Of a stretch of DNA of 64,000 bases, positions 1,703 to 20,900 are shown one piece after another. Position 1 is the first letter of the stretch, and every line of letters begins with the position of its first letter. Both the position numbers and the translations under genes were made by a program. The DNA comes from a bacterium. GTDB taxonomy: Bacteria > Omnitrophota > Gorgyraeia > Zapsychrales > Zapsychraceae. The DNA lies in the NCBI GenBank assembly GCA_030429765.1, contig JAUIER010000001.1, positions 129,302 through 193,301 on the forward strand, written 5' to 3'. A model generated the notes under the pieces. It saw only the letters and a list, made by a program, of their open reading frames with translations. It ran no database searches and was not told where the DNA came from.

Positions 1703-1721
1703 CGTGAGTCAAAATCTTAAA

Positions 1722-1756
1722 AAGGCGCTTCACGATGGTGAGGCGCCTTTTTTTAT
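1722..1756 (+). terminator. Rho-independent terminator hairpin downstream of the HAF/PEP-CTERM gene
   Basis: GGCGCTTCAC-GATG-GTGAGGCGCC followed by TTTTTTT. Confidence 0.5.
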
Positions 1757-1789
1757 GACCATTTCGATCTCAGCATGTATAATCGATGA

Positions 1790-3304: not shown

Positions 3305-3351
3305 ATAATTCTAATGCTTTAGCCAACATATCTGGAAATTTAGTGGCCGAT

Positions 3352-4769: not shown

Positions 4770-4982
4770 GTGCTAATTCCAGATATTGTTCGTATCATGT
4801 CAGATGCGCGGTTGACTGTCAATGTCCAAGCGTGAATTAGGAGTTCAGAATAGTCAGACAGTGAGGGACTTACTGGGACAGGCCCGGACATAGAATTATT
4901 ACGGATGTTCCCGAGAAGCTATTGACGGATTTCGGGGCAGCCCTTATACTTACTATTATAAATCTTACGATTTATAAATCAC

Positions 4983-5020
4983 ATTCCCCAATCACATCAT
5001 TTCAATTCATAACTTTAGTT
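4983..5020 (+). promoter_or_regulatory. conserved upstream element ATTCCCCAATC-N19-CTTTAGTT, 58 nt before the paralog A start
   Basis: same bipartite motif with near-identical spacing and distance to the start codon as upstream of paralog B at 17813-17849. Confidence 0.4.
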
Positions 5021-5077
5021 CAGTTGAAATCTATCTCAACAGGCTGTAAAGTAGTCTGTTTTAATTTGGCTGAAGTT

Positions 5078-8000
5078 ATGACAATAACTCCTTATAACAA
5101 AACTATTCAATTGATTCGCCAAACAATCGCGGGATTAACGGCGTTGTGTTTGATCAGTGTATCATTGTATCCGGGCGTGGCGTATGCCGGGGATCCTGAC
5201 CGTTTCACATTACCCGGTCCCGGTCAAATGGTCCGCACAACATCTGCGTTCGCGCCGGCGATGATCCGCGGGGTGAGTATTCATGCCGATAATCCGTTAA
5301 GATTTGATTTTATTATCGACCGCGGTGACAAACCTCTATCGGGTCAGCTTCAACAATCTGAATATCAAAAACTTGTAAAATATTTCCTGACATCGCTGAC
5401 AGTTCCGGAAAAAGACCTGTGGGTCAATCTTTCCCCGAATGAAAAAGACCGAATCATTCCGGAGAAATTTGGTTTAACCGAAATGGGACGCGATCTTCTG
5501 GGCCAGGACTATCTGCTTAAACAACTCACGGCGTCACTCATGTATCCCGAAGAAGAATTGGGTGAACAATTCTGGCAGCGTGTCCGTCAGCAAACGTTTG
5601 AGAGGTATGGTCATACGGATATTCCGTTAAACGCGTTTCGCAAGGTTTGGATTGTTCCGGAACGCGCGGTGGTGTTTGAGGACAACAACACAGCCTACGT
5701 GGCGGATTCGTTTTTAAAGGTGATGCTCGAGGAAGATTATGCTGAACTGCCTCATTCATCAATCACCGACGATTCAGATGAACAATTTTCAATGTCAGAT
5801 GTTGTCCGTGAGATTATTGTTCCTGAGTTGGAACATGAGGTGAATTTTGGAGAACATTTCGCTCAATTGAGGCAAATTTACAGCGCTTTGATCCTGGCGA
5901 CCTGGTACAAACAAACACTTCGTGAGAGTTTGTTGGGACAGGTTTATGTGAACAAGAATAGAGTACGAGGGGTAGATGTTCAGGACAGTTCAGCGAAGGA
6001 AAAGATTTACGCGCAGTATCTCAAGGCGTTTGAGATCGGTGTTTATAACTACATCAAGGAAGAGTACGATCCGGAGTCTCAATCCGTGATTCCACGTCAG
6101 TATGTTTCGGGCGGAGCGGGTTTGCAGTTGTCCGGAGTGCTGAGTCGGTATCAGCGACTGACAAGTTTACCACGGCGGGCTTACAGCAATATGCGCGCGT
6201 TAGCGCGAAAAGCATTAGGTTCGACTGGGCTGGACCGGATCGTGGTGGATTTGAGGGAGGTTCCCGCGTCGGAACAATTGATCGTTGACGCGGCCATGTT
6301 GACTGACCCTGCGGCGTTTGTTTTTGCGGATGAGTCGGAACAGATCCTGGATTTGACGCGTCAGTTGCGTCATCTGCCATCGCTGAATGATTTGGCCGGC
6401 ATCGTTGAGACCAATCAGAAATATTACGAACAGACCATTGCATGGCTGGTCCATCAGTTTATGCTGGGCGCATTTGACCGTCCGCTCATGGCCGATCTGG
6501 CCGAAAGCATTCGCTCATTACGTGTATCCAAGGCCCGGGTGTTTGATCGGATCCTGAAAGGTCGAGTTCAGCTGGATGGGATCGACATGGTGAAATATTT
6601 TCTTAAGGGAGATCTCGAGACCATGGTTGATGATGTTCAGCGGTCGCTGGCAGCTCGGCGGACCATTTTGGCAACGGAGATCGAATCAGCCCAACAATTA
6701 GCCGCTTCCGTTCAATCAATTACCATAAATGAAACCAGTCCGCTGGTGCTATGGCATACCGTGCGGGCGATGGGAGAGATCGCGAACAATCCTGCAGCTC
6801 GACCGGAACTGCGACGGTACGTGCTCGGACAGATCATCGGTTTTTATCTGACATTTAACCGGATAGGTTTTGCGGCGCCGATTCGAACACAAGCCGTTCA
6901 AATTTTGCGGCAAACTGGGATTGTTCAAATCAGCCGATTTCTATTGCCTCGTTTGGATCCGTTTTCGCGGACATCCACGACCGATACGTCCAATTTCGAG
7001 AAAAATTCCACAATCCGCGCGCGGATTGTCGACACATTGTTCGAGATGATCGACGCACCGAATCTCGATGATGAAATTCGGCAGTCGATTTTGCTCAGGA
7101 TGTTGGCCGTCAGTCATTACGATCCGGACCGCAACATTCGTCGACAGGCCAAACGCGAATTACGCCGTCGTAACATTTCGGAAGCGTCACTTCAGACCGT
7201 CGTCTCAAAAGAGGCGGATTCAGCTGTTCTGTCTGAACAACCGGATTTACTATCGGCCGAATGGCGCTATGGCCGGATCGCAGAGGATTTGTTAATCTTG
7301 TTAGAGGCAAACGGATGGGACGGTTACGGGATTGATTTTGAAACGGCATACAACGAAGGCGCATCGGTTTGGTCGTCGGTATCATGGGGGAAAGAAGGAT
7401 TGTGGATCCATGTGCATTTACATCATCCGGATAAACTACGTGCCAATCAGCCATTTTTGAATAACGGTTTGATGTTCCGGATAGAGAGCTACAACGATGA
7501 CCGTATCAAATTGACGGATCCATGGATTGAAGCAAATCCCGACGGAGTTCAGGCCTTTCAGCATGGCTTTGTCTCATTGCAAAGTATCGTCGATCGTGAG
7601 TCAAGTTTGGGTCAGGATGTGATTGAGCGAATGATCACATTGGCCGAAGAATCGGCAAACCGGGAAAGAGATGATATCCTGGCGGGAATTCGTCGAGGAA
7701 AGAAAATCCAGATGCTGATCGCGGATGCGGTTGAGCCGGACCAGGCCGTAGGTGTGCGGGATATGCTGGCCTATGTTGAATTCGGCCGTGCGATTCGCAG
7801 CGAGGCGCAGCAGGCCTATGGATTTAAATTTGCCCCAATGAATTTCAGTTCAGACGGTTTAACGGTCCTGGAAGATGGATCCATCCAAACCGATGCCGCC
7901 GTTTTGTCGTCGCCCGGCGGGATTACGATTATTCAGGATGCGATTACCCGTCTGGATGGAACAACTCTACGAGAGCGTCTGTATGCTTTATTGGAAGAGC

Positions 8001-8686
8001 GGGCGATTGATCTTGAAGAGTTCCCACCGCAGATCGGCAAGACCGAATCAAACTTTAAACAGATGATGGCCGGCGGCGGATTCCGCATTACACCGGAAGT
8101 TCTAGTCAGGAGCGCCCAGATTCTCGACGTGAATGTCGTTGAATTGTATACCGGTCTGCCGTTGGAATCTGCGCTTCAGCAGATTGATACGCCCGGCGGT
8201 CGATTGATGCTGCTTCGTATGACGCGAGGATTGACGCGAGTCGATGTTAAAAATAAAGTCGAGGCCCGCACGGCCCGCAAATTTAACGCCAATCAACTGA
8301 CCAAGTGGGAGACCTCCGAGACGATTGAGGACGATACTGATCTTGATGTCGTGGCGGATGTCATCGGCACGGATGTCAGCACAATTATGGATGGCGTAGC
8401 GTCAGTGTCGACGGATGATCAAGCTATGTCATCAATGGAAAAAACCGATGCCGTCGGGGGGATCGATTTGAACCCCGTTAACATGAACCTTCAAATCAAG
8501 CGCGATTCCCAAGGGGTTCCGCTGCCACTAAATGTTCAGCCGATTGATTCCATGCAGATTGATGGCTTTAGTCCCGTGATCATTCAAATCCTTCCCATTC
8601 ATCAATTGCCGCTGTTATCTGATTTGCTCGACGATACCGAGCAACCTGTCATCGGTTCTCTTCAAATTGATCCCAACAAAGGGTAA
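5078..8686 (+). CDS. large secreted protein of unrecognised family, paralog A (about 1200 aa)
   Basis: Start chosen at the internal ATG giving signal peptide MTITPYNKTIQLIRQTIAGLTALCLISVSLYPGVAYA. N-terminal ~400 aa collinear with the 17904 protein (NPL+F.F..D.G, WVNLSP, GQDYLLKQLT, VWIVPE, ILATWYK..L..SLLGQ.Y...NRV). Conserved C-terminal GGID-N block. Confidence 0.65.
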   Translation: MTITPYNKTIQLIRQTIAGLTALCLISVSLYPGVAYAGDPDRFTLPGPGQMVRTTSAFAPAMIRGVSIHADNPLRFDFIIDRGDKPLSGQLQQSEYQKLVKYFLTSLTVPEKDLWVNLSPNEKDRIIPEKFGLTEMGRDLLGQDYLLKQLTASLMYPEEELGEQFWQRVRQQTFERYGHTDIPLNAFRKVWIVPERAVVFEDNNTAYVADSFLKVMLEEDYAELPHSSITDDSDEQFSMSDVVREIIVPELEHEVNFGEHFAQLRQIYSALILATWYKQTLRESLLGQVYVNKNRVRGVDVQDSSAKEKIYAQYLKAFEIGVYNYIKEEYDPESQSVIPRQYVSGGAGLQLSGVLSRYQRLTSLPRRAYSNMRALARKALGSTGLDRIVVDLREVPASEQLIVDAAMLTDPAAFVFADESEQILDLTRQLRHLPSLNDLAGIVETNQKYYEQTIAWLVHQFMLGAFDRPLMADLAESIRSLRVSKARVFDRILKGRVQLDGIDMVKYFLKGDLETMVDDVQRSLAARRTILATEIESAQQLAASVQSITINETSPLVLWHTVRAMGEIANNPAARPELRRYVLGQIIGFYLTFNRIGFAAPIRTQAVQILRQTGIVQISRFLLPRLDPFSRTSTTDTSNFEKNSTIRARIVDTLFEMIDAPNLDDEIRQSILLRMLAVSHYDPDRNIRRQAKRELRRRNISEASLQTVVSKEADSAVLSEQPDLLSAEWRYGRIAEDLLILLEANGWDGYGIDFETAYNEGASVWSSVSWGKEGLWIHVHLHHPDKLRANQPFLNNGLMFRIESYNDDRIKLTDPWIEANPDGVQAFQHGFVSLQSIVDRESSLGQDVIERMITLAEESANRERDDILAGIRRGKKIQMLIADAVEPDQAVGVRDMLAYVEFGRAIRSEAQQAYGFKFAPMNFSSDGLTVLEDGSIQTDAAVLSSPGGITIIQDAITRLDGTTLRERLYALLEERAIDLEEFPPQIGKTESNFKQMMAGGGFRITPEVLVRSAQILDVNVVELYTGLPLESALQQIDTPGGRLMLLRMTRGLTRVDVKNKVEARTARKFNANQLTKWETSETIEDDTDLDVVADVIGTDVSTIMDGVASVSTDDQAMSSMEKTDAVGGIDLNPVNMNLQIKRDSQGVPLPLNVQPIDSMQIDGFSPVIIQILPIHQLPLLSDLLDDTEQPVIGSLQIDPNKG

Positions 8687-8799
8687 GATGTCTTGATTTG
8701 AGACATTTTAGGTCCGAATATTTATCATGTATTCCTTTATCCGGGTTCACGATGTTGTTAGACTACACTAGTGTTTAACTCGTCTAACCGGAGGTCGGA

Positions 8800-9414
8800 A
8801 TGAAAAAATTGATGCTGACACTGTTGTTTGCCGTTTGGATTGCCGGTATACCGGCGAACGCCCAGGCGCTATTGCTGTACAAGGATACATTCCTCAACGC
8901 GACACGCGAGCAAATCGATCCGGTCGTCGGGGTGCAGGGATTTTATGTGAATGATTTTGCGACGGAATTCTTTAACGGCTATACGATTGATTTATCTGAT
9001 CCGCTAACTGTGGGATCGATCTTCACGTCTTCCGCCGGTGATGTGGGCTTCGGGACATTTGCCGCTTATCTGACTGATGGTATCGAGCAAAGCTGGCAGG
9101 CGCGGTTTGTATTGAGCAACGGCATTCAGGCGTTGCAGCGGTCCGAGCCGTTGAGTTTCGGAACGAGTCTCTTTAGTGCCAACAATATCGATCTGGCCGG
9201 CTACCGTATAGATCAACTACAATTTTCGGTCGATTCGGTGGAGGCCCTGGCTGCGGCTTCCGGCTTTAGATGGACAACCAGTATCTCGGTCTTCGGCGAT
9301 TTGGATTCAACGCCCAATGCCATTCCTGAACCGTCAACACTCCTGCTCCTGGGCATGGGGATGACTGGAATGATTATACGTCGACGTCGTGACAGCGATC
9401 GTGCTGCGGTGTAA
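8800..9414 (+). CDS. PEP-CTERM sorting domain protein (204 aa)
   Basis: signal peptide; C-terminus IPEPSTLLLLGMGMTGMIIRRRRD = PEP + TM + Arg cluster. Confidence 0.65.
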   Translation: MKKLMLTLLFAVWIAGIPANAQALLLYKDTFLNATREQIDPVVGVQGFYVNDFATEFFNGYTIDLSDPLTVGSIFTSSAGDVGFGTFAAYLTDGIEQSWQARFVLSNGIQALQRSEPLSFGTSLFSANNIDLAGYRIDQLQFSVDSVEALAAASGFRWTTSISVFGDLDSTPNAIPEPSTLLLLGMGMTGMIIRRRRDSDRAAV

Positions 9415-9450
9415 GATTGACCCCGCGGGAGTTCTCCCTATAATAGAAGA

Positions 9451-10878
9451 ATGTTATCCAACCGGTATCAATATACCATCCGGCGTCTGATTTATTCATG
9501 CGCCATCGTGTTTCTATCCCTATTTTCAAATGTGATCTATGCGCCGGCGATGGATCGGTCACCCCAGTCCGAGTCACATGACCGTGAGTGGGTCGTGATT
9601 TGGCATGACGAATTTGACGGTGATCGTGTCAATCCTGCCAAATGGCGCATTGAAGACGCCGCGCTGATCAAAAACAACGAACAGCAATACTACACGCCGG
9701 AAGATGTGTATCTGGAAGACGGACATCTGGTACTCCGCAGTCAGCAGCGTCCGATGGGCGGACGTGATTACACATCCGGATTGGTCGAGACCAAGGGGTT
9801 GTTTACATTCACCTACGGGCGGGTGGAGGTGCGCGCGCGATTACCCAAGGGTAAAGGCATTTGGCCGGCGCACTGGATGATGAACGCCGTCGGAACCTGG
9901 CCGCCCGAGATCGACATCATGGAGATGTTGGGGCATCGGCCAACCAAGATTCATATGACCAATCACTTTGGTGTTCATCCACGCAACTCCCGGCACGGCG
10001 GGTATTATGAAGGGCCGGACTATTCAGCAGACTTTCACACCTATGCGATTGAGTGGACACCGGACGAAATAAAATGGTTTATCGACGGTGTTGAACGGTT
10101 TAGCACGCGAAAGTATGTTCATGATGTCCCGTTTTACATTATTCTCAACACGGCGGTCGGCGGCAATTGGCCGGGCTACCCGGATGAGACTACGGAGTTT
10201 CCGCAGTATCACCACATTGACTACGTTCGCGTTTACAAAAAGAATGTGCCGGGGACGGGATTTGTGTATCTGACAGCTGAACATGGACAGGTGAGCCAGC
10301 AGCCGAACGAACACCGTTATGCCTTGGGTACGACGATTCAGTTGGCGGCCAAGCCCGATATCGGATATAAATTTTCGCATTGGACAGGTGATTTGGAAGG
10401 GACCCAGAATCCGTTGGATCTGACCATCGCCGGCAATGTTCGGGCGGCAGCAGTTTTTGCTGAAGATCCGGACGCCCCCGGATTAATTTCGTCCCGGGCG
10501 GCGGTGCTGTCATCCTCGCAGGAAAGCGATCAATTGGGGCCGGCCAACGTGGTGGATGGAAATCTGGGAACGCGTTGGTCCTCAGAGTTTTCAGATCCGC
10601 AATGGATCCAGATTGATTTGGGGGAAGCTCGTTTGATTGAGGCGATGCGGCTGAATTGGGAGAATGCGTTTGCCCGGAGTTATGCGATCGCGGTATCCGA
10701 TGATGCCCTCACATGGAGTACGGTCTATGCCAAGGCCGATTCTAACGGAGGGGTTCATAACATACGGCTGGTCCAATCCGTCTCGGCCCGCTACATCCGG
10801 CTTACGGGAACGGAGCGGGGCACTCAATGGGGCTATTCACTCTGGGAATTTGAGGTATTCGGTCAATCGCAGGAGTAG
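9451..10878 (+). CDS. glycoside hydrolase family 16 (beta-glucanase/laminarinase-like) with C-terminal F5/8 type C (discoidin) domain
   Basis: GH16 catalytic motif EIDIMEM; WHDEFDG; C-terminal RWSSEFSDPQWIQIDLG typical of discoidin domains; N-terminal signal/TM. Confidence 0.75.
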   Translation: MLSNRYQYTIRRLIYSCAIVFLSLFSNVIYAPAMDRSPQSESHDREWVVIWHDEFDGDRVNPAKWRIEDAALIKNNEQQYYTPEDVYLEDGHLVLRSQQRPMGGRDYTSGLVETKGLFTFTYGRVEVRARLPKGKGIWPAHWMMNAVGTWPPEIDIMEMLGHRPTKIHMTNHFGVHPRNSRHGGYYEGPDYSADFHTYAIEWTPDEIKWFIDGVERFSTRKYVHDVPFYIILNTAVGGNWPGYPDETTEFPQYHHIDYVRVYKKNVPGTGFVYLTAEHGQVSQQPNEHRYALGTTIQLAAKPDIGYKFSHWTGDLEGTQNPLDLTIAGNVRAAAVFAEDPDAPGLISSRAAVLSSSQESDQLGPANVVDGNLGTRWSSEFSDPQWIQIDLGEARLIEAMRLNWENAFARSYAIAVSDDALTWSTVYAKADSNGGVHNIRLVQSVSARYIRLTGTERGTQWGYSLWEFEVFGQSQE

Positions 10879-10933
10879 CAAAGACAGTCGATATTTGCTT
10901 TGTCAGGGCCTTGGATTAACGGTACAATTAATT

Positions 10934-11338
10934 ATGCAAAAAGGTTTCACGCTTCTTGAACTGATCATTGTGATCATCATCGTCGGTGTGTTGGCGTCGC
11001 TGGCCTTGCCACGGTTCTTCAGTATGGTGGAATTCGCCCGATCAGCCGAGGCCATGTCATCATTGATGACCGTACGGCAGTCGATACTTCGCTGCGGTCA
11101 ATATAACAATAACTATATGGGCTGCGATACCTTCGCCGATATCGATATTGATGATCCGGGCTCTGAGCCGGGCGCGCATTTTTCCTATGCCTGGACGGTT
11201 ACCAGCGCCGACGCCTTCACCGTAACCGCTACTCGTAATACCATCAACGGCGGCTCCGCGGGAGACACCGTTGTCGTGTCTGTCGCCCCGGCCGGCATCA
11301 GCCGCTCGGGCACTTCCGCCTTTGCCGGAATCAAGTAA
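10934..11338 (+). CDS. type IV pilin-like / pseudopilin protein with prepilin N-terminal methylation motif
   Basis: MQKGFTLLELIIVIIIVGVLASLALP = class III signal (G|FTLLE) ; ORF-track start at 10664 overlaps upstream gene, internal ATG used. Confidence 0.7.
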   Translation: MQKGFTLLELIIVIIIVGVLASLALPRFFSMVEFARSAEAMSSLMTVRQSILRCGQYNNNYMGCDTFADIDIDDPGSEPGAHFSYAWTVTSADAFTVTATRNTINGGSAGDTVVVSVAPAGISRSGTSAFAGIK

Positions 11339-11433
11339 AATTCCCTCACGAACCTACCCAGCCGTCCTCGCATTTATCTTTATCGACCGGGATGATATAA
11401 TACTTTATATTTAATCTACGGAGAATTGAACAT

Positions 11434-11766
11434 ATGGACGACAAACGACTGAAACTATTGTCTCAGGTGCGGATGAAGATCGCGCTGTGCAGCGCGCTGT
11501 TTTTGTTTATTTCGATCTCCATTTGTACCCGAAAGCTGCTGGGATGGTCGGTATTCGGGGAGGCCTTTGAATTTATTTTTTTCTGTCTGGGATTTGTGAC
11601 ATGTATGGCGGCCTATCAAAAATGTGAAGATGTGATGGACAGCGAATACAAGCAGATACGGACCGGGATTATGCAATGGTATTTTATCGTATCGATGACC
11701 ATGTTTGCGGCCTTCGCGGCGCTGGAGTTATTGTTATTATTGAAATCTCTAAAAGAGCCGTTTTAG
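11434..11766 (+). CDS. small membrane protein (110 aa)
   Basis: three hydrophobic helices; no motif. Confidence 0.3.
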   Translation: MDDKRLKLLSQVRMKIALCSALFLFISISICTRKLLGWSVFGEAFEFIFFCLGFVTCMAAYQKCEDVMDSEYKQIRTGIMQWYFIVSMTMFAAFAALELLLLLKSLKEPF

Positions 11767-11772
11767 TCAAAA

Positions 11773-12102
11773 ATGAAGATGCATAAATGTCCCAGTTGTG
11801 GAGAGGATGGAATTACAGCGGATGGATTTCTGAATTCTTCTCGAGAACATGAAGCCCAGTGTACTAGCTGCGGAATTTATTACTTCTCAGAAGTTCAAGT
11901 GACTTGGGCCGAAGGCACTTTTCTGATTTTTGATTTCATATTCATAGGCGGCGGGCTCATTACCTTGATTTTGGCTTTTGTATATCCTATATTCGGGATT
12001 CTACTTGTTACATTAATTATAGTTCGACTAGTTTATGCGTATTTGATAGAGCGTAGGGGGAAGATTCGTAGAATCCTTATTCGAGGAAAGGATTATATGT
12101 GA
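11773..12102 (+). CDS. zinc-ribbon membrane protein (109 aa)
   Basis: CPSCG...CTSCG double CxxC followed by two TM helices. Confidence 0.4.
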   Translation: MKMHKCPSCGEDGITADGFLNSSREHEAQCTSCGIYYFSEVQVTWAEGTFLIFDFIFIGGGLITLILAFVYPIFGILLVTLIIVRLVYAYLIERRGKIRRILIRGKDYM

Positions 12103-12127
12103 TGGATACGTTAGAGAGTAAGACGGA

Positions 12128-12328
12128 CTATCGATACTTACTCTTATAATAATAATACCCCGACATCACGAGGCAGTGGGCGGCATATAGGTAGAGCATG
12201 ATCTTCCAATGGCGTCCTCTGGAGATCAGGGCCACGAGAATGGCCACACAAATAAATCCAATAAGCACATTGCGTTCACGCTGAAGGATTTTGTTGAATT
12301 TGAGTTTCATACATAAACATTCTAGCAC
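12128..12328 (-). CDS. small membrane protein (66 aa)
   Basis: single hydrophobic helix; only clear minus-strand ORF in this block. Confidence 0.25.
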   Translation of the reverse strand: MLECLCMKLKFNKILQRERNVLIGFICVAILVALISRGRHWKIMLYLYAAHCLVMSGYYYYKSKYR

Positions 12329-12337
12329 ACAGAGAAT

Positions 12338-12721
12338 ATGAATCGAATCGTTAAAAGATGGGCCGGAATTTATTTTCTGTTTCAGGGGATATCCGGTCTA
12401 GTTTGGTGGAGTGTACTGTTGATCGTGCCGGAAAGTCGGTCTGTATTTTTTCCGGTTATCCCCGAGATTGCATTATTGGGGTTTTGGCTGGCCGACTTTG
12501 TGTTTTTTATTTTGGGATCATTGTTGTTGGGTTTTACTCTGATAGCAGGATTTTCGATGAATCGGCTTTTGTTTGGTGCTGTCGCAGGCGGGATTGTTTA
12601 TGCCGGACTTTATTGTTTGGGGTTGAGTATTCTGTCAATGTCCGGGTGGATGTGGACTATACTAATGATCGGTGCATCTGCTATAACGATTTATTTGGTT
12701 TGGGTGTGCGTAAATGAATAG
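12338..12721 (+). CDS. membrane protein (127 aa, 4 TM)
   Basis: hydrophobic profile; its stop overlaps the next gene start (translational coupling). Confidence 0.4.
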   Translation: MNRIVKRWAGIYFLFQGISGLVWWSVLLIVPESRSVFFPVIPEIALLGFWLADFVFFILGSLLLGFTLIAGFSMNRLLFGAVAGGIVYAGLYCLGLSILSMSGWMWTILMIGASAITIYLVWVCVNE

Positions 12722-13262
12722 ATTTTTGAATCAATTCAAAGTTTCACGCTCTGATCGCACCAGTTGGAATGTCATGAAGACCATGCTGCAAACTTCAGTG
12801 TTTTGGAGCATTTTTTTGTGGATTCTACCCGTCGGGATTCAACATATAGAATCTGGGATGGGGCTTAATCCGTTTGAGTTTGCAGGGCAGAAGCACGTGG
12901 CTGTTGTGATTTTTGTTTGCGCCAGCGTTTTAGGTCTCGCGAGTGGGCTGACCATGTCGGCCAGAGGCGTCGGGACACCTTTGCCGTTAGATTGTCCTCA
13001 AAAATTAGTCGTGACTGGACCCTACCGATATGTACGCAATCCAATGGCCATTGCCGGCCTGTCTCAGGGATTTGCTGTTGGTCTGGGCTTGGGATCAATA
13101 GGTGTGATCCTTTATGTCGTGATTGGCATGTTTGTTTGGAATCAGTGGGTCCGACCGATTGAGGAATTGGACCTGTTAAACAGGTTTCAGCAGGCTTACA
13201 CCGAATATTGCGGACAGGTCCGATGCTGGATTCCAAATTTCGATGGATATCAGCCAAAATAG
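12714..13262 (+). CDS. isoprenylcysteine carboxyl methyltransferase (ICMT)/phospholipid methyltransferase family membrane protein
   Basis: LVVTGPYRYVRNPMAIAGL matches the ICMT/PEMT family signature (G.Y...RNP.Y.G); multiple TM. Confidence 0.6.
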   Translation: MNRFLNQFKVSRSDRTSWNVMKTMLQTSVFWSIFLWILPVGIQHIESGMGLNPFEFAGQKHVAVVIFVCASVLGLASGLTMSARGVGTPLPLDCPQKLVVTGPYRYVRNPMAIAGLSQGFAVGLGLGSIGVILYVVIGMFVWNQWVRPIEELDLLNRFQQAYTEYCGQVRCWIPNFDGYQPK

Positions 13263-13357
13263 TCACGGCTCAGGTTGTCGGTTTCCATCTTGAGGTCTGT
13301 CGGCTCAAGGGGTAAAATGAAGCCAATAGTTGAGATTGATCCGTAAATAAACGAAAG

Positions 13358-16096
13358 GTGGGGATGGAATTTTATCCGTTAATTTGGATGGCCAGTTTGA
13401 TCGGGTCAGCCGTGATCTGCAGTCAAAAGGGTGTCAGTCGATGGTATATCTTCTGGACGCTGTTTTTGGGGCCACTGGGATTGTTGATCACCTGGCTGGC
13501 CACGCCAAGTACCGGGCCCCGGGAGTCGCAGCAGATCATTGATCTCAAGGAAGAGATTACACATCTCAAGCTGAATGTGGCCGATCTACAACGTCGGATG
13601 CGTGAGGTGGAGTCCTCTAAAGCTCCGGTGCAGCCGGCCCCACCAATAGAGGCGGATGTCCCCTCCGAACCGGTCACCGAAGCGAAGGGATCAGAACCCG
13701 AGGCGCGGCCGGTTGAGATTGATGAAACTCCCTCGGAACCTGAAGTGGTTCTTCCGCCATCAGATTTTGACAGTCTAGTTGAATCCTCACCACTGCGTTC
13801 CAAACCTCAATGTTCGCCAAGCGCCATGCAGGCCGCTACTCAAAAGGTTACGCAATCACGCGAGCCGTCCAAGGCGGAAATCAATTTCGGTCAGTTTTGG
13901 CTGAACAAGATCGGGATTGTCATCTTCACGCTGGGGATCGGATTTTTTATCAGCTATTCATTTAAATATTTTCCGCCGATCGTTAAAAACGCGTTTGGTT
14001 ACGCGATTGCCGGCGGCTTGTTTTATCTCGGTCGTCGTTTTGAAAAAGACCGGCAGATGCGCCATTACGGGTTGGCCTTGATGGGCGCCGGCTGGGCGCT
14101 GACCTATTTTGTCACGTACGCCCTGCATCACTTTGACGCGTCGCGTGTGATTGACAATCAAATCGTCGACATGTGTCTGCTGTTCGTGGTGGCGGCGGGG
14201 ATGATGTGGCATTCGATGAAGGTCAAGTCCGAGACGATGATGATGGTCAGTCTGGGTACGGCCTATGTCACATCGCTGGTCGGGACGGTGACGGCTTTTA
14301 CCTTTGTCAGCTCGATGATTTTGGGATGTGTCGCGGTGTTTTTACTCTATCGGTTTCAGTGGGTCAAGACGTTGTTCCTGGGCATCGGTATGACATACGG
14401 GATCCATCAGTTTTTTATTGCGCCGTCGTGGGGGATTTTTGATGCTTTGATAGATCACGGTTCACGGCCGGAACCCCGATTAAACCTGATGTTTCTGTCG
14501 GCCTATTGGGCGCTGTTTTTTATAGGAACGCATGTGGTGCGCGGGACGGATGATTGGCAAAAAAATTGTGTATCGGCCGCAAACTTTATGAACTTCACAT
14601 TATTCTTTGTGATGAGCGGTGGGCTGTTTCAGACGTATTATCCGGACTATCGTGTGATCACGTTGGTCCTGATGGCCGTCGTCTATGCCGCGGCCGGAGT
14701 ATACGGACGGGTTCGCGGGCAGCGGATTTTGTACGCCGGTGACTGCGTCGTGGCCGTGTTCGCGTTGACCCTGGCGACGTCCATTCAATACTTGCCGCAG
14801 ACCAGTCTGATGATCGCTTTGATTCAAACGCCGTTCCTGTATTTTATGGGAACGCGGTTTAAGGACCGTGTCCTCAAATATCTCAGTTTCGGATTGAGCG
14901 GATACGCGTTGATCCGATTTGTGATCGCGCTCACGGATGTCCTGCGGCCGTACCATGCCTATGGAGCGGAGCCAGTTTATGAGTGGACGGCGTTGGTGGG
15001 CACACTGGCGATGGGGGCCTGTTTTTGGTTGGCTCGACCCGCATCGACCGAGCGGACCGACACACTCCTGGACATCAAAGATGCCTTTGTTGTCCTGACA
15101 TCATTTTATCTCAACGCGTTTCTTTGGCTGAAATTTGACGGACCATGGCTGCCTTTGGTTGTTTTCCTAGAGGTCCCGTTGATGATATGGGCGGCCCGCC
15201 GAATCCGTGAGGATATGTTACACATCGTCGCGCAGGTCTTGACCTGGTTGGCCGTGTGTTTGCTGTTCATTGATTTTCCGACGAGTAACAAGACGGTTGG
15301 AGTTGGATTTTTGGGGCTATCCTGGACGAACGTGGAGTGGACATTCCTTTTAGGGAGCGTTTGTTTGTGGATCAGTTGGGCGTTGAGTCGGTATACGCGT
15401 GTGTCGGATCAAGAGGACGTGATCGGCGGATTGACGGAGCAGGCGTACTCCGCGTTGGCCGCCTTTTTAATGACGTGTTGGGTTTTGTCAGTATTCGAGC
15501 GACACTGGATGACCGTTGCTTTGACGGTGGAAGCCCTGGCCCTGTTTGGATTATCCCGCGGGTTCAATCTCAAACGGTTACGGATTTACGCGTATATTGT
15601 TTTGGGAATTGTGCTTGCTCGGTTTATTGGTGTGGATCGGTACGCATCGCTGGGCGGCGGACAATGGCTGATGATCGCTTTCGAATTAGTGAGTGTTTTT
15701 GGGCTGTACGTTGTCTCCACTCTCGAACGGGAAGACAGCGCGAATGATGAGACCATTGAAGTTGAATCCGGCGGAATATTTTTCGGGTTTATCCTCATGA
15801 CGCTGTGGAGTATTTTCAAATATGCCGCATGGGGGTGGCGGTCGCTGTGTCTCGGGGTGGGAGGGGTATTGCTGATCCTCTTTGGACTGGTCCGGCAGGA
15901 CAAGGTGTCGCGAATCGGCGGTTTTGGACTGTTGGCGTTGTCATTAGTCAGGATCATTCTCGTCGATCTGGCCCGCCTGCCGACGATTTTTAAGATCATC
16001 AGTTTTATTATCATCGGAGGTCTTTTGCTGGGCTTGTCTTTCATGTATAATAAAAGCTTTTCCGGAGACAAATCTGATTCTCCATCCGATTCCTGA
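13358..16096 (+). CDS. large polytopic membrane protein (912 aa), DUF2339-like architecture
   Basis: N-terminal TM pair, coiled-coil (IIDLKEEITHLKLNVADLQRRMREVE), Pro/Glu-rich linker, then more than 20 hydrophobic helices. Confidence 0.5.
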   Translation: MGMEFYPLIWMASLIGSAVICSQKGVSRWYIFWTLFLGPLGLLITWLATPSTGPRESQQIIDLKEEITHLKLNVADLQRRMREVESSKAPVQPAPPIEADVPSEPVTEAKGSEPEARPVEIDETPSEPEVVLPPSDFDSLVESSPLRSKPQCSPSAMQAATQKVTQSREPSKAEINFGQFWLNKIGIVIFTLGIGFFISYSFKYFPPIVKNAFGYAIAGGLFYLGRRFEKDRQMRHYGLALMGAGWALTYFVTYALHHFDASRVIDNQIVDMCLLFVVAAGMMWHSMKVKSETMMMVSLGTAYVTSLVGTVTAFTFVSSMILGCVAVFLLYRFQWVKTLFLGIGMTYGIHQFFIAPSWGIFDALIDHGSRPEPRLNLMFLSAYWALFFIGTHVVRGTDDWQKNCVSAANFMNFTLFFVMSGGLFQTYYPDYRVITLVLMAVVYAAAGVYGRVRGQRILYAGDCVVAVFALTLATSIQYLPQTSLMIALIQTPFLYFMGTRFKDRVLKYLSFGLSGYALIRFVIALTDVLRPYHAYGAEPVYEWTALVGTLAMGACFWLARPASTERTDTLLDIKDAFVVLTSFYLNAFLWLKFDGPWLPLVVFLEVPLMIWAARRIREDMLHIVAQVLTWLAVCLLFIDFPTSNKTVGVGFLGLSWTNVEWTFLLGSVCLWISWALSRYTRVSDQEDVIGGLTEQAYSALAAFLMTCWVLSVFERHWMTVALTVEALALFGLSRGFNLKRLRIYAYIVLGIVLARFIGVDRYASLGGGQWLMIAFELVSVFGLYVVSTLEREDSANDETIEVESGGIFFGFILMTLWSIFKYAAWGWRSLCLGVGGVLLILFGLVRQDKVSRIGGFGLLALSLVRIILVDLARLPTIFKIISFIIIGGLLLGLSFMYNKSFSGDKSDSPSDS

Positions 16097-16843
16097 TTGT
16101 TTATGCCGATTTATATCATTACAATTTGCCTTCAAGTGGCCTGCGCCGTGCACTGTATCAAGACACAGCGGAATTTCATGTGGTTGTGGCTGATCCTGCT
16201 GTTTCCCATCGTCGGCGTGCTGGTGTATTTGATTGTCGAGGTTGTCCCCGAGGTGCAGGGAGAGGCGGCCCGTATTCCCAAGAAAAAAATCCCGCGAAAT
16301 CCCGAGAAGCACATTCAAATGCTCAAGGATCAGATTGAGTTCAGTGATAGTATCGAGAACCGAGTTAATCTGGCCGAGGCGTACATGTCGCTCAAACGCT
16401 ATCCCGAAGCGATCGGTGTGTATCAGGAATGTCTAAAAGGTATGTACAGCGATGATTTCTATCTGCTGTTGGGATTGGCCTACGCCTATTTTAAAAACAA
16501 GGACTATGAACAGACGATTATGACGCTGGAAACCATTGAGGCGCAGGATACGTCCGAGAAGCTCAGGGAACGAAAGCTCCTCGAAGCGCAGAGCTATGAA
16601 CAATTGCAGAAGTATGATCAGGCCTTGAGCCTGTATCAGAGCATTATCAATTCTATTGGTGAGGAAGCGCGCTGTCGCTGCGCGTTGCTGCTATGGAAAA
16701 TGGAGCGCAAAGAAGAGGCGGCCAAACTGTTTAAGGAAATTCAGGTCAATGCCAAACACTCGGACGCTAAATACCGACGGGAACAGAAGGCCTGGATCGA
16801 TGCCGCCCGAAAAATGCTCGATCAAATGAATAAAACATCGTGA
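16097..16843 (+). CDS. membrane-anchored TPR-repeat protein
   Basis: two N-terminal TM helices followed by TPR-like Ala/Tyr/Leu helical repeats (AEAYMSLKRYPEAIGVYQECL, LGLAYAYFKNKDYEQT). Confidence 0.55.
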   Translation: MFMPIYIITICLQVACAVHCIKTQRNFMWLWLILLFPIVGVLVYLIVEVVPEVQGEAARIPKKKIPRNPEKHIQMLKDQIEFSDSIENRVNLAEAYMSLKRYPEAIGVYQECLKGMYSDDFYLLLGLAYAYFKNKDYEQTIMTLETIEAQDTSEKLRERKLLEAQSYEQLQKYDQALSLYQSIINSIGEEARCRCALLLWKMERKEEAAKLFKEIQVNAKHSDAKYRREQKAWIDAARKMLDQMNKTS

Positions 16844-16876
16844 TCGATTTTAAAGAACTACAAAGGAGTCAGGATT

Positions 16877-17716
16877 ATGGATTTAGAAGCAACCCTTAAG
16901 TCATTGGATATTAACACGATTATCGCCGTGGGCGGACCGATCTTGTTCAATCTGGTTTATGCGATCGTTATATTCGTCGTCGGAAAATGGTTGGCCAAGA
17001 GTCTGGCTAATGTCACGCATAAATTGATGAACCGCGCCAAGGTGGATGTGGCGTTGATTGGTTTTGTGACGGCGATTGTCCGCACGGGGATTACGGTTTT
17101 CGCGATTGTCGCGGCGATTGAAAAATTGGGAATTAAAACAACGGGATTTTTGGCGATCCTGGGGGCGGCCGGTTTGGCGATCGGAATGGCGTTACAGGGA
17201 ACCCTCTCTAATTTTGCGGCCGGTGTGATGTTGATTCTCTTTAAACCGTTTAGTGTCGGTGATTTTATTGAAGGTGGCGGCGTAACCGGGACTGTCAAGG
17301 AGATCCAGATCTTCAATACCGTGTTGAACACGGGAGATAACCGCAAGATCATCGTTCCCAATTCAAAAATTGGAGGTGATACCATTACCAATTATTCGGC
17401 GATCAGCCGACGCCGAGTGGATCTGGTTATCGGGGTCAGCTACGATGACGATCTCAAGCAGGCCAAATCCATCCTGATGAATATCCTGACCTCGGATGAA
17501 CGTGTTCTCAAAGATCCGGCCCCGGTGGTGGCCATCTCTGAGCTGGGTGACAGCAGTGTCAACATCATCGTCCGTCCTTGGGTGAAGCCTTCGGATTACT
17601 GGGCGGTCTACTGGGATACCTTGGAGAAGTCCAAATTTGAGCTCGAGGCGGCCGGATTATCGATTCCATATCCGCAACGGGATATCCATATGATTCCAGC
17701 GGAATCAAATGCCTAA
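16877..17716 (+). CDS. small-conductance mechanosensitive channel, MscS family
   Basis: 3 TM + conserved pore helix/beta-domain LAILGAAGLAIGMALQGTLSNFAAGVMLILFKPFSVGDFIE...TGTVKEIQIFNTVLNTGDNRKIIVPNSKI. Confidence 0.8.
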   Translation: MDLEATLKSLDINTIIAVGGPILFNLVYAIVIFVVGKWLAKSLANVTHKLMNRAKVDVALIGFVTAIVRTGITVFAIVAAIEKLGIKTTGFLAILGAAGLAIGMALQGTLSNFAAGVMLILFKPFSVGDFIEGGGVTGTVKEIQIFNTVLNTGDNRKIIVPNSKIGGDTITNYSAISRRRVDLVIGVSYDDDLKQAKSILMNILTSDERVLKDPAPVVAISELGDSSVNIIVRPWVKPSDYWAVYWDTLEKSKFELEAAGLSIPYPQRDIHMIPAESNA

Positions 17717-17812
17717 AAACGCGGATTCCGGGGGTGAAAGAATTTGTGCTTGGCGGGTGCGAATCTGTATGGTATCCTTATATATACGTTAAAAACGTGT
17801 TTTTCACACCAT

Positions 17813-17849
17813 ATTCCCCAATCCCGCAGTGAAACGTCTGTCTTTAGTT
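17813..17849 (+). promoter_or_regulatory. conserved upstream element ATTCCCCAATC-N18-CTTTAGTT, 55 nt before the paralog B start
   Basis: matches the element at 4983-5020. Confidence 0.4.
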
Positions 17850-17903
17850 TCTCAAACATAGAATTGTATCTTAAGTATAAAGCTTACAGGTGAGGGATTA
17901 TCT

Positions 17904-20900
17904 ATGGACAGGAAACAAGGATTTATTTCGGGGCTGGAACGGCTGATCGGCATCACATTGTCGGTGATATTTTTGATGACATCTGTCGCTGTTCCGGTAA
18001 CGTCTGGTCATGATCATGAACTTCCCAAACTGGGAACACTTGTCAATCCAACGCCCGCGCATCGTCCGATGCTGTTTCAGGGAATTGAGATCCATCCCAA
18101 CAATCCACTCAAAATAAGTTTTCTATTCGATCCCGGTGAAGAACGGGATTCATCTAATTTTAAAGATCAGGCTGACCGGTTGATCCGGTACTTCCTTGCG
18201 GCGTTGACCGTTCCCAAGTCTGAAATGTGGGTCAATCTTTCGCCATTTGAACAGAACCGGATCATGAGCGAGAATCTCGGTGCCACGGCCATGGGACAGG
18301 ACCTGCTGGCGCAGGATTACCTGCTCAAACAACTCACGTCATCATTACTCCATCCGGATTCTGAATATGGACGTAAGTTTTGGTCCAAAGTTCACGCATT
18401 GGTCTATGAAAAATATGGATCCGTGGACATGCCCGTCGACACCTACAACAAGGTATGGATTGTCCCGGAATCGGCCGACGTGGTCGAACACGAGACCGGG
18501 GCCCGTATCCGCGACGGACAACTGAACGTGATGTTGGAGCGGGATTACATTGCGATGACACGCGGACAAACGACTGTTTCAAATGTGACCGAGGAGCAGC
18601 TGGAGTCGGGACATAACATTCAGCAGGAAGCCCTGCGTGAGATCATCATTCCGGCTATTAAACGCGAGGTCAATGAAGGGCAGACCTTCGCGCCGCTGCG
18701 GCAAATGTTTCATGCGATGATCCTGGCGACGTGGTACAAACGATCATTGTCCCGGAGTTTGTTGGGACAGCAATACGCGGACCAAAACAGAGTGGCTGAT
18801 TTGTCCAGCGGTACGTCCAATCAAACCCGGCAGATCTACGAGCAATATGTCGCGTCCTACCGTCGCGGGGTGTACAACTTTGTGCGTGAGGACTATCACA
18901 CGTCAACCGATTCGACCGTCACACGTCAGTACTTTTCCGGCGGCATTTCCACGGATAAACTTGAGCTAAAGGTCGCCGCGGATCGGCAGCGTTATGTCGA
19001 GACCGATCTGGCGATGGTGAGTGTATATCTGAACGATGGATCACCGTTCAGTCAGGCCATGCTGTCCCGTGAAGATCGACTGGCTGAGTCATTACGGCTC
19101 CGGCACGAATCGATGGGTGAGCTCAAAGAGGCCTTTGGTCGTTTTTTCCCGCATATTGACTTTGGTTCAATGGGAATTTTTCAGGGATTTGTGGAATCAT
19201 TTTTTATCCCTTGGTCGGAAGGATATCGTCAGGCTGAACGTCAGATTCGGGACAGCCTGGTCGCGCCCTATCTCTCCCAGATCGAGGCAATGGGAGAGGT
19301 CAGTTCGGCCATGGCCTTTATGAACCCGATGTGGGGGATGCAGCAACAGATCTGGCGGCCGATCACCGAGCAGGCCCGCAAGATGCGTAAGACGATTGAC
19401 TACGTCAAGTCCATCGAAAACGAGACGCCGGAGTCATTCTCGCCGGGGACAACGATCTTGAGGGTGCCGGGACTTTTCTATCTAACAAAGATCGAATCCC
19501 TGGAAGGGCAGACGGTTAATCCCGATTTACCGCCCGCGCTGATCATCACACCGCATTCCGGTCATGACGGTCGGTCATTGGCCGATTACACCAATAAGGA
19601 CCGGACCGGTTCCAACAGTCTGGCCCAGACATTCAAAAATAGAGGGTATGAAACGTATATTCTGGTGTGGGAAAGTTCACGTGAGCTGCTCGACATTGGA
19701 GACTTACAGGAAGCTGTGCATCTGAGCGTCCGGACGATCGGTCAGAAGGTTGTGATTGGCGGATTATGCCACGGAGGGGCCGTCGGCGCCCATTATATGG
19801 GTGTGATGCCGGACAATGTGGCGGGATTGATCCTCGCCGGGGCGCCGGTCAATACGCATGTCGGGGACAACGATGTCACACAGGCCGCGCAGATGGATAT
19901 GTCGATATACAACTGGTTGCAGTTTGGTCATGGCGTGCCGGATGTGTATCCCGGCCTGGCGCAATTGCATGCCTTTAAGCATCTGGGCTTCAACGGCGGA
20001 TATGATAAACGCGTGACGGCGTGGAAGCGCTTGGTGGAAAATATCGATGACATTGATTATGTGGAGCGTGACCGGATTTTCCGCATCTGGTTTGAAAATG
20101 TCAACAATATCGGTTATTTCGTTGACTGGATTGACCAGGTCTTTAAACGCAATCGATTTGTCTTTGGAGATTTAACATTCCGTTTGGGGCAGAAAAAGTT
20201 TCGTTCGAGTCCGGCTAATTTCCGGCCGGATGTCCCGATCGCCACGATCGAAGGGGCCGCGGATGATATCACGCCGCCGCCGACGATCACCATTGACGAA
20301 ATGGCTGAAGTGTCCGATGATCCGCAAGGTCTTTGGGCGTTTCTGACGCATGGTATTGTCAGCCGCGAACGTCTGGGGGATCAGGAACTCGATGGACAAC
20401 CGCTATTTGATTATCTGTCCGACAATGGATATATCGATATCCGCCAGACCGGTGATGTTAATTACGGCTATGTGAACCAGTCCCGGCTGGTGCCGGCGCT
20501 CAATGAGTACGCGAAAAAGCTCAATGCCTTTCGGTTTGCCGTCGGTGATTTTCAAGACCGGGATGATACGGCCGAGTCAGTTCTGCCGAAGATTCAGCTT
20601 TTAATTGACGCGGTCGCGGCACAATCCGGCCTTCCGGAATTCAGCGCCACACACTATGCCGAGGCACTGCGTTGGCTCAACGCGGATATTTCCTTGTATG
20701 GAGTGCTGGATCGAGATGAGCTGCGGAATTTGGACGGGCAACTGGTTGAGGCTATCGAGTCTGAATTATCCGCGCCGTTGGACCAATTGGATAACGAGCA
20801 GTTGACGGCGTTGAATCAGACTTTCGAGGGTATCAAACTCAAACGGCTGATCGCGATGCAGGTGTTTCCCGAGGCGGCTCCGGATACCGTTCGCCGCGCG

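Follow-up and report, generated by a model that had tools for sequence, protein, structure and literature searches.

A conserved two-part motif in the probable leaders of an Omnitrophota gene family lies downstream of an ordinary promoter

Comparable control systems

Among described control elements, the ops/JUMPStart element of RfaH and the sites of the NusG paralogs LoaP and UpxY are short, invariant, strand-specific leader boxes found at variable distances from their promoters. The ops consensus is GGCGGTAGCGTG, and RfaH targets often lack a good Shine-Dalgarno sequence. Other points of comparison are translational-repression leaders, where a pyrimidine-rich segment 5′ of the gene covers the Shine-Dalgarno sequence or AUG (examples are RNA thermometers, ribosomal-protein operators, and the C-rich regions of RsaE/RoxS-type small RNAs), and the cis-regulatory RNAs collected in Rfam, such as riboswitches and leaders. 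Promoters of ECF-type sigma factors (group 4) form a further class, with AAC in the -35 element, CGT in the -10 element, and a fixed spacer of about 16-17 nt, plus or minus 1. The Omnitrophota are uncultivated, and almost nothing is known of their gene regulation.

The elements described here precede two paralogous genes in a 64,000-nucleotide stretch of an Omnitrophota genome (the window). They resemble ops/JUMPStart in being short, oriented leader boxes before long genes for surface or secreted products, at several loci per genome, with terminator-like hairpins downstream in most leaders; unlike ops/JUMPStart, they are bipartite with a flexible linker, and the sequences are unrelated. As in translational-repression leaders, a C-rich stretch predicted to be unpaired (UUCCCC) complements purine-rich ribosome-binding sites, and the box 2 region is complementary to the sequence around the AUG of the same gene (14-22 bp in W1, the leader of paralog 1), but here the core is invariant rather than covarying, the register varies, and no Rfam family matches. 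The location in a 5′ leader, the conservation across species, and the association with one gene family are shared with Rfam cis-regulatory RNAs, in contrast to which no gathering-score match and no conserved multi-helix fold were found. ECF promoters are likewise bipartite motifs 5′ of genes for exported proteins, and the gaps of 18-19 nt in the window come close to their geometry; the wider gap range of 2-25 nt, the missing AAC/CGT elements, and a housekeeping promoter upstream set the present elements apart.

The motif and the paralogs in the window

Identical half-sites upstream of two paralogs, with spacing within 1 nt and 55-58 nt from the ATGs, had been noted in a first-pass annotation of the window, and an exact search bore this out. 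The sequence ATTCCCCAATC-N19-CTTTAGTT occurs at 4983-5020 on the plus strand, 5′ of paralog 1, and ATTCCCCAATC-N18-CTTTAGTT at 17813-17849, also on the plus strand, 5′ of paralog 2. From the end of CTTTAGTT to the ATG there are 58 nt for the first gene, whose ATG is at 5078 rather than 5079, and 55 nt for the second (ATG at 17904). The parts of the motif and the genes are as follows.

4983-4993, plus strand: box 1 of leader 1, ATTCCCCAATC, exact match, predicted unpaired probability 0.99
5013-5020, plus strand: box 2 of leader 1, CTTTAGTT, exact match (with flank, AACTTTAGTT at 5011-5020)
5078-8686, plus strand: paralog 1, 1202 aa, Omnitrophota-specific family with a conserved N-terminal domain of ~310 aa
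17813-17823, plus strand: box 1 of leader 2, ATTCCCCAATC, exact match, predicted unpaired probability 0.92
17842-17849, plus strand: box 2 of leader 2, CTTTAGTT, exact match
17904-21626, plus strand: paralog 2, 1240 aa, same family as paralog 1 with a different middle region

The exact pattern TTCCCCAATC-N15-22-CTTTAGTT matched the window only at 4984-5020 and 17814-17849, both on the plus strand, and was absent from all 100 dinucleotide-preserving shuffles of the window. Taken singly, the half-sites are unremarkable in the window; it is their combination, orientation, and position that stand out. Alignment of the two upstream regions revealed further common blocks, namely CCTTATA in the -10 region, GAAnTnTATCTnAA, and TAAAG.

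The paralogy of the two genes also held, with 44% identity over ~310 N-terminal residues and a further common C-terminal segment of ~57 residues. Paralog 1 had no match in Pfam or NCBIfam, and the middle region of paralog 2 has weak similarity to alpha/beta-hydrolases (PHA synthase/depolymerase-like). The N-terminal domain of the family is without a recognizable structural relative. Family genes behind the boxes are long (3.6-4.9 kb) and encode signal-peptide-bearing proteins. This hypervariable family has many copies per genome and is probably secreted or surface-exposed. The source genome is absent from the GTDB representatives, where the best match is 61% identical, and in Logan it is represented only by the 5.6-kb contig SRR24442552.

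Conservation across Omnitrophota

Both boxes, always in the sense orientation, also lie 5′ of seven homologous genes in four other Omnitrophota genomes (L001, L022, L029, L042, L043, L059, and L073) and one metagenome contig (L097). Together with the leaders of paralog 1 (W1) and paralog 2 (W2), these make ten instances, which include two pairs of close orthologs. The box 1 sequence TTCCCCAATC and the TTAGT core of box 2 are invariant in all ten, and the boxes are identical in at least six different genomes, with unrelated sequence between and around them. The gaps between box 1 and box 2 are 2, 2, 16, 18, 18, 19, 22, 24, 25, and 25 nt, and the distance from box 2 to the ATG ranges from ~55 to 400 nt. 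The near-equal distance to the ATG is a feature of the window pair only, homologous leaders elsewhere having ~95-400 nt.

An 8-mer of the motif was the top recurrent non-AT-rich 8-mer upstream of 83 family genes, occurring in the sense direction at 10 loci and in the antisense direction at 0-2. A sequence model scan of 714 kb returned the known instances only, every one 5′ of a family gene. A metagenome scan with a 19-base pattern gave listed matches that were nearly all due to chance, inside coding DNA of unrelated organisms, and tblastn detected no family gene beside the matches listed, except at the one true instance, L097. The same pattern had seven chance matches in viral contigs. Such matches do not refute the motif because chance alone should produce them when a pattern of 19 bases is searched in so large a collection.

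No further instance was present at four extra homolog loci and three viral-contig loci. Of three of the extra homolog loci that were inspected directly, L192 and L193 have short, simple leaders. Other family members carry a palindromic operator-like site, GAAAGCGCTTTC, where the boxes would sit, and in other genomes a YGCCACGG box occurs in family leaders. A literature search on the motif sequence and on Omnitrophota paralog families found nothing relevant.

An ordinary promoter upstream of the boxes

Both window leaders have a match to a housekeeping-type promoter a short distance before box 1.

4922-4950, plus strand: sigma-70-type promoter of paralog 1, TTGACG-N17-TATACT, 10/12 in the consensus scan
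17750-17778, plus strand: probable promoter of paralog 2, TTGGCG-N17-TATCCT, with TG extended -10 TGGTATCCT, 8/12

The paralog 2 promoter is the weaker of the two and fell under the threshold of the consensus scan, its 8/12 coming from a scripted match. Across the instances, the 75 nt upstream of box 1 contained a sigma-70-like site (hexamers of the TTGACA-N16-18-TATAAT type) matching at 10/12 positions or better in seven of ten cases, against 0.84% of 5000 random positions. The promoter of L043 is ambiguous. A -10 element of the type TGnTAT(A/C)CT is enriched 5′ of family genes. The motif is real and conserved, and it lies downstream of an ordinary promoter.

The end of the -10 element lies 26-44 nt before box 1, so box 1 would be situated at about +20 to +38 of the transcript, with the start placed from consensus matches only. 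A further conserved promoter lies nearer the gene in L042 and L059, and for this reason the module in these two leaders could be a separate short transcript.

Predicted structure of the leader RNA

Folding of the leaders yielded a 5′ hairpin in each window leader and a terminator-like hairpin in leader 1.

4956-4977, plus strand: 5′ hairpin of leader 1, UUAUAAAUC-uuac-GAUUUAUAA, MFE z = -8.0 against 500 shuffles, also in the whole-leader fold
17784-17800, plus strand: 5′ hairpin of leader 2, MFE z = -2.2, p = 0.046, also in the leader fold
5038-5060, plus strand: terminator-like hairpin followed by UUUUAAUUU, at the tip of the long leader helix, from the terminator scan and fold

The hairpin of leader 1 is predicted to begin at or near the presumed 5′ end of the transcript. 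A 5′ hairpin was significant (p < 0.05) in 7/10 instances, with a different sequence each time. The box region is poor in G, with 2-6 G per 35-57 nt, and box 1 has a predicted unpaired probability of 0.71-0.99, compared with ~0.5 across the leader as a whole. Behind box 2, W1, L001, L022/L029, L042, and L059 have a terminator-like hairpin with a U-tract, and there is no clear terminator after the boxes in W2 and L073. In W1, which is without a good Shine-Dalgarno sequence, this hairpin ends 18 nt 5′ of the ATG.

No conserved covarying structure across the boxes and no common multi-helix architecture were found among the ten instances, which comprise few independent sequences. Rfam 15 had no family at the gathering score in the window, and the two leaders gave chance-level matches only (E up to 10). 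A leader peptide was rejected because no ATG is present in the leader of W1 and the lengths of the gaps do not keep to multiples of three. Pairing between box 1 and box 2 was ruled out by inspection, there being no complement of box 1 nearby.

Predicted pairing with the translation start

In both window leaders, the region of box 2 is predicted to pair with the start of translation.

5007-5029, plus strand: anti-start strand of leader 1, containing box 2; partner 5058-5082, including the AUG at 5078; duplex -21.1 kcal/mol
17836-17855, plus strand: anti-start strand of leader 2, containing box 2; partner 17890-17913; duplex -16.5 kcal/mol

The W1 duplex was the best or near-best of 73 leader windows, and the fold of the whole leader (MFE -31.9 kcal/mol, z = -6.3) places the AUG in a predicted 14-bp helix with box 2. 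The W2 duplex was the best of 71 leader windows, and its partner comprises the Shine-Dalgarno sequence GUGAGGGA, the AUG, and the next codons; the whole-leader fold of W2 was not significant (z = -0.9). In all five short leaders, the strongest internal pairing predicted for the ribosome-binding site and start codon is with a segment overlapping a box, namely box 2 in W1 and W2 and box 1 in L001, L022, and L073. In the long leaders L042, L059, and L043, the start region has a better partner than the boxes.

The box 2 region pairs more strongly with its own start region than with those of the other instances (-11.8 vs. -7.8 kcal/mol; permutation p = 0.0003, a value that shared base composition within a locus could inflate). 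The box 1 region, used as a control, showed no preference for its own gene (p = 0.19). For box 1 (UUCCCC), the predicted pairing with purine-rich ribosome-binding sites is generic and extends to all family genes, with a mean of ~-9 kcal/mol. Pairing does not explain the invariance of the cores because the register between box 2 and the start region differs between instances.

A probable leader control element and competing explanations

The motif is probably a post-initiation control element in the untranslated leader and not an alternative-sigma promoter. A flexible, single-stranded element is favored over a promoter or a rigid DNA site because the two boxes are 2-25 nt apart and the ATG follows box 2 at anything between ~55 and 400 nt. 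The element would most likely be recognized in the leader RNA, or else in the non-template strand while RNA polymerase elongates, and not as a promoter.

In the proposed model, an ordinary promoter of sigma-70 type, ~30-40 nt 5′ of box 1, would initiate transcription. The RNA would usually open with a hairpin, continue into a G-poor single-stranded stretch with box 1 (UUCCCCAAUC), and after a linker of 2-25 nt reach box 2, (A)CUUUAGUU. The invariant boxes would be read by a trans-acting factor, for which candidates are an RNA-binding protein, a small RNA, or an elongation factor acting on the non-template strand. A second role of the box region may be to mask the ribosome-binding site and start codon by pairing, and binding of the factor could switch translation, or read-through of the leader hairpin, on or off. 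Paralogs with common boxes would then be controlled together. A regulator site and co-regulation of the paralogs, both suggested by the first-pass annotation, are plausible because an invariant box is common to diverged paralogs within and across genomes. The model as a whole, in which a factor reads the boxes and is coupled to masking of the translation start, is held with moderate confidence.

The strongest competitor, itself unlikely, is a DNA operator consisting of box 1, with or without box 2, at which a transcription factor blocks or modulates RNA polymerase downstream of the promoter. Such a site would be well matched by an invariant box of 10-11 bp lying a few helical turns past the -10 element, and the palindromic GAAAGCGCTTTC at the same position in other family members suggests that DNA-level control exists in the family. 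Box 1, however, is neither a palindrome nor a direct repeat, all ten instances are strictly sense, and its distance varies by 18 nt to the -10 element and by 23 nt to box 2. A role at the RNA level also agrees better with the 5′ hairpins, with a context that is poor in G and predicted to be unpaired, and with the complementarity to the translation start.

Somewhat less probable is a pause-and-load site of ops/JUMPStart type, at which a specialized NusG paralog would secure terminator read-through and full-length transcripts of long genes. The boxes have the expected character, being short, invariant, and oriented, at a variable distance from a housekeeping promoter and ahead of 3.6-4.9 kb signal-peptide genes. 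The terminator-like hairpins with U-tracts in W1, L001, L022/L029, L042, and L059 and the poor Shine-Dalgarno sequence of W1 also agree with it. Against this reading, the sequence is unlike ops, W2 and L073 are without a clear terminator, and the 38 larger window ORFs that were scanned include no NusG paralog or KOW protein.

It is improbable that promoter, hairpin, boxes, and terminator form an independent small RNA gene that is merely located upstream of family genes, its C-rich seed pairing with Shine-Dalgarno sequences in trans. L042 and L059 speak for it, with a U-rich tail on the hairpin behind the boxes and another conserved promoter at a shorter distance from the gene, and so does the UUCCCC of box 1, which is predicted to be unpaired and pairs generically with family ribosome-binding sites. 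Yet the module always adjoins a co-oriented family gene, the W1 hairpin ends only 18 nt before an ATG with which box 2 pairs, W2 and L073 have no terminator, and no Rfam small RNA matches.

The first-pass annotation had read the boxes as the -35 and -10 elements of an alternative (ECF-type) sigma promoter, with transcription starting 7-10 nt after CTTTAGTT. This reading did not stand and is now very improbable. The window gaps of 19 and 18 nt with a similar ATG distance had suggested it, further instances with gaps of 16-18 nt agree with it, and tandem promoters are common. Six instances, however, have gaps of 2, 2, 22, 24, 25, and 25 nt with both boxes conserved, a range that no sigma factor is known to tolerate. 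Neither TTCCCCAATC nor CTTTAGTT bears a signature of AAC or CGT type, the spacing to the ATG varies among instances, and immediately upstream there is a strong promoter of housekeeping type. A Pfam scan of the 38 larger ORFs in the window revealed no sigma or anti-sigma gene.

That the common blocks are functionless leftovers of paralog duplication or gene conversion is scarcely credible. The genes are paralogous, and their upstream regions have several common blocks in a shared order, but at a protein identity of only 44% any neutral DNA should have reached saturation, and the boxes are identical in at least six genomes amid unrelated sequence.

Implications for the gene family

Three gains come from the analysis. 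The first is a promoter consensus for the family genes, TTGACA-N17-TATACT, often with a TG extended -10. The second is a leader motif, conserved and strand-specific, by which part of a very large, uncharacterized, and probably exported family is set apart, and the third is a testable model in which translation or read-through would be controlled via the leader. If the boxes are read by a dedicated factor, a regulon of variable proteins, secreted or on the surface, would thereby be defined in Omnitrophota. There is also a caution for annotation, as a well-spaced bipartite motif near a start codon resembled a promoter in two copies and only comparison across genomes showed otherwise.

A broader and doubtful proposal is that short, lineage-specific "address" boxes in mRNA leaders assign subsets of this hypervariable protein family in Omnitrophota to post-initiation regulators of their own. 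If true, an uncultivated phylum would possess an undescribed system by which variable surface proteins are expressed in coordination or to the exclusion of one another, and the reader in this system could be either a new RNA-binding protein or a factor resembling ops/RfaH. The boxes seen so far are TTCCCCAATC...TTAGTT here and YGCCACGG in other genomes, with the palindromic GAAAGCGCTTTC operator in others.

A two-box motif upstream of the paralogs

Paralogs 1 and 2, members of a large uncharacterised Omnitrophota protein family, match at 44% identity over ∼310 N-terminal residues and again in a ∼57-residue C-terminal segment; their middle parts are unrelated. The family architecture seems to be one of variable middle modules between a constant N-terminal domain and a short constant C-terminus. 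The bipartite motif reported upstream of both genes in the first-pass annotation was recovered by pattern search exactly as described, and the best-supported reading is that its half-sites, box 1 and box 2, are part of a transcribed leader element. The leaders of paralogs 1 and 2 are termed W1 and W2.

Features of the paralogs and their leaders in the window
4922-4950: promoter of paralog 1, TTGACG-N17-TATACT
4956-4977: 5′ hairpin of W1, z = -8.0
4983-5020, + strand: motif copy 1, ATTCCCCAATC-N19-CTTTAGTT
5038-5060: terminator-like hairpin and U-tract of W1
5078-8686: paralog 1, 1202 aa, ATG at 5078
17750-17778: weaker, probable promoter of paralog 2, TTGGCG-N17-TATCCT (8/12, extended -10 TG)
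17784-17800: 5′ hairpin of W2, z = -2.2
17813-17849, + strand: motif copy 2, ATTCCCCAATC-N18-CTTTAGTT
17904-21626: paralog 2, 1240 aa

Pattern searches recovered no further copy of the combined motif in the window and none in 100 dinucleotide-preserving shuffles, and the window occurrences of either box alone were unremarkable. Additional common blocks in conserved order emerged when the two upstream regions were aligned: CCTTATA precedes box 1, and both GAAnTnTATCTnAA and TAAAG follow box 2. Homolog alignments begin at ATG 5078; the frame of paralog 1 is open for a further 52 codons (4922-5077), back to a TTG at 4922 that is also part of the -35 hexamer, so gene callers may stretch the ORF across the entire leader and conceal the motif.

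Conservation across the family

Upstream regions were compared for 83 family genes, 81 from 80 homolog loci (L001-L080) along with paralogs 1 and 2 of the window. Seven of the loci, from four genomes (L001, L022, L029, L042, L043, L059, and L073), carry TTCCCCAATC and then (C)TTTAGT or TTAGTT, in sense orientation without exception, and a metagenome contig (L097) supplied one more instance, giving ten in total with two close-ortholog pairs among them. Among 8-mers upstream of family genes that are not AT-rich, TTCCCCAA/TCCCCAAT recurred most often, sense in 10 loci versus antisense in 0-2. A sequence-only model built from nine instances, scanned against both strands of 714 kb (the window and L001-L080), returned the known instances only, save one weak match (L033, E = 0.17); the matches listed from a metagenome pattern scan were overwhelmingly by chance. 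Because the motif-bearing proteins are only ∼50-60% identical and the inter-box DNA is unrelated, the boxes are, on sequence comparison, under selection and not a remnant of duplication, and a neutral origin is disfavoured.

Carriers make up 3/5 of the sampled paralogs in HKST-UBA13, 2/4 in Gw_Eff_bin_307, and 2/2 in the window, and other genomes, OFTM38 among them (0/10), have none. The first-pass proposal of co-regulation is reasonable for paralogs with a common element, which are probably co-regulated.

An extra TTCCCCAATC copy lies in L042 (8805-8870), ∼50 nt past the family gene's stop codon (gene at 3866-8752); a TATAAT stands 14 nt ahead of this copy, and a strong terminator hairpin with a U-tract follows closely. 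The locus stops short of the next gene, and this copy could be chance, a 3′-UTR element, or a small RNA.

Promoters upstream of box 1

The half-sites had been likened to the -35/-10 pair of an alternative (ECF-type) sigma factor, a reading disfavoured by a variable inter-box gap (2, 2, 16, 18, 18, 19, 22, 24, 25, and 25 nt) and by a canonical sigma-70-type promoter upstream of box 1. Box 2 lies ∼55 nt from the start codon in the window versus ∼95-400 nt elsewhere, and a Pfam scan of the 38 larger window ORFs revealed no sigma-factor gene.

Promoters upstream of box 1 in other loci
L001, L042, L097: TTGACA-N17-TATACT
L022, L029: TTGACA-N17-TATATT
L059: TTGACT-N17-TATACT

Sigma-70-like matches of at least 10/12 occurred within 75 nt upstream of box 1 in 7/10 instances; the corresponding rate at 5000 random positions in the same loci was 0.84%. 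The -10 element ends 26-44 nt before box 1, and on this geometry box 1 would be at about +20 to +38 of a transcript from an ordinary promoter. TGnTATACT-type sequences are enriched upstream of family genes, and the recurrence there of GTTATACT, GCATACTT, TGTTATAC, and TGGCATAC, among the most recurrent 8-mers (L001-L080), points to TATACT, often with an extended TGn, as the -10 consensus of these genes. L042 and L059 have a second conserved promoter closer to the gene.

Leader anatomy and pairing with the translation start

A hairpin between the -10 and box 1 was stabler than shuffled controls (p < 0.05) in 7/10 instances, with a different sequence each time (L073, z = -5.4). From box 1 through box 2 the leader contains little G (2-6 G in 35-57 nt); box 1 has a predicted unpaired probability of 0.71-0.99 versus ∼0.5 across the leader, and box 2 is variable. 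The boxes are nearly adjacent in L042 and L059, and some of the long linkers have an insert that forms a small hairpin of its own, e.g., AGGAU-auucu-AUCCU in L022. In W1, L001, L022/L029, L042, and L059, box 2 is followed by a terminator-like hairpin with a U-tract, which is absent in W2 and L073.

The W1 leader folds at -31.9 kcal/mol (z = -6.3 versus shuffles), with a predicted 14-bp helix between UCAUAACUUUAGUU (box 2) and GGCUGAAGUUAUGA (start codon). The whole-leader fold of W2 was not significant; its box 2 region is predicted to pair with the Shine-Dalgarno, AUG, and next codons (-16.5 kcal/mol). In a test of eight independent instances, box 2 regions paired more strongly with the start region of the same leader than with start regions taken from the others (-11.8 versus -7.8 kcal/mol, permutation p = 0.0003), and the box 1 region, a composition control, showed no such preference (p = 0.19). 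When a 23-nt window was slid along each leader, the best start-region partner overlapped box 2 in W1 and W2, overlapped box 1 and its 5′ flank in L001, L022, and L073 (UUCCCC against the purine-rich ribosome-binding site), and fell outside the boxes in the three long leaders. The pairing register is not constant between instances; cis pairing therefore leaves the invariance of the box cores unexplained.

A proposed leader element

The element would run from a promoter through a 5′ hairpin to two single-stranded boxes of invariant sequence, joined by a flexible linker and followed in most leaders by a hairpin and U-tract; in short leaders the box region may double as a mask of the translation start. 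The boxes are invariant in sequence, variable in spacing, and strictly strand-specific, and together these features point to recognition by a trans-acting factor. Such a factor may be an RNA-binding protein, a small RNA, or else an elongation factor that reads the non-template strand, and its binding would alter start-codon access or read-through. RfaH reads ops on the non-template strand, and the elongation-factor version may be likened to it; C-rich anti-Shine-Dalgarno RNAs and cold-shock-domain binding sites offer further possible parallels. A DNA operator is an unlikely account of boxes that combine invariant sequence with variable spacing and a single orientation. An ops-like antitermination site, ahead of terminator-like hairpins present in most leaders and missing from others, is slightly less likely again, and a separate small RNA formed by the promoter, hairpin, and boxes is improbable for a module placed in sense upstream of family genes.

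The leader element had no match in Rfam 15 families, and full-text literature searches on the box sequence found nothing relevant. It is previously undescribed, belongs to the familiar class of conserved 5′-leader regulatory motifs, and is associated with genes of an expanded, uncharacterised protein family of an uncultivated phylum.

Neighbouring genes and other leader motifs

Residues 569-790 of paralog 2 (19608-20273) show weak similarity, below curated cut-offs, to PHA synthase/depolymerase alpha/beta-hydrolases, which paralog 1 lacks. A C-terminal PEP-CTERM sorting motif occurs in two window proteins (506-1702 and 8800-9414). The second is encoded immediately after paralog 1, and a GH16 / F5/8-type-C glycoside hydrolase (9451-10878) comes next; paralog 2 is followed by a dual-specificity phosphatase (21693-22295). 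Two family genes lie within a few kb in seven loci (L008, L010, L016, L050, L061, L075, and L077), and L042 has another large ORF just upstream (359-3439). Database homologs are often labelled 'partial' at contig ends, a hint that family paralogs break assemblies.

A different box, YGCCACGG (e.g., CCTGCCACGG, CACGCCACGG), recurs on the sense strand ahead of 12 other family genes, against a chance expectation of ∼1.5 occurrences in those regions; wherever a promoter could be recognised, this box follows the -10 by a few tens of nt. It has the appearance of another leader motif of the same gene family, one that is lineage-specific. Some family genes are preceded by GAAAGCGCTTTC, a perfect palindrome of 12 bp that lies just downstream of the -10 in L027 and L055 and looks like a classical dimeric transcription-factor operator.

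Sites of the other upstream motifs (locus:position)
YGCCACGG: L002:3775, L005:3838, L008:3701, L011:3851, L017:3809, L025:2542, L027:3760, L028:177, L030:3818, L031:3963, L036:3850, L062:3887
Palindrome: L027:3638, L041:3785, L055:3707, L079:3104
Palindrome half-sites: L023:3911, L056:3917
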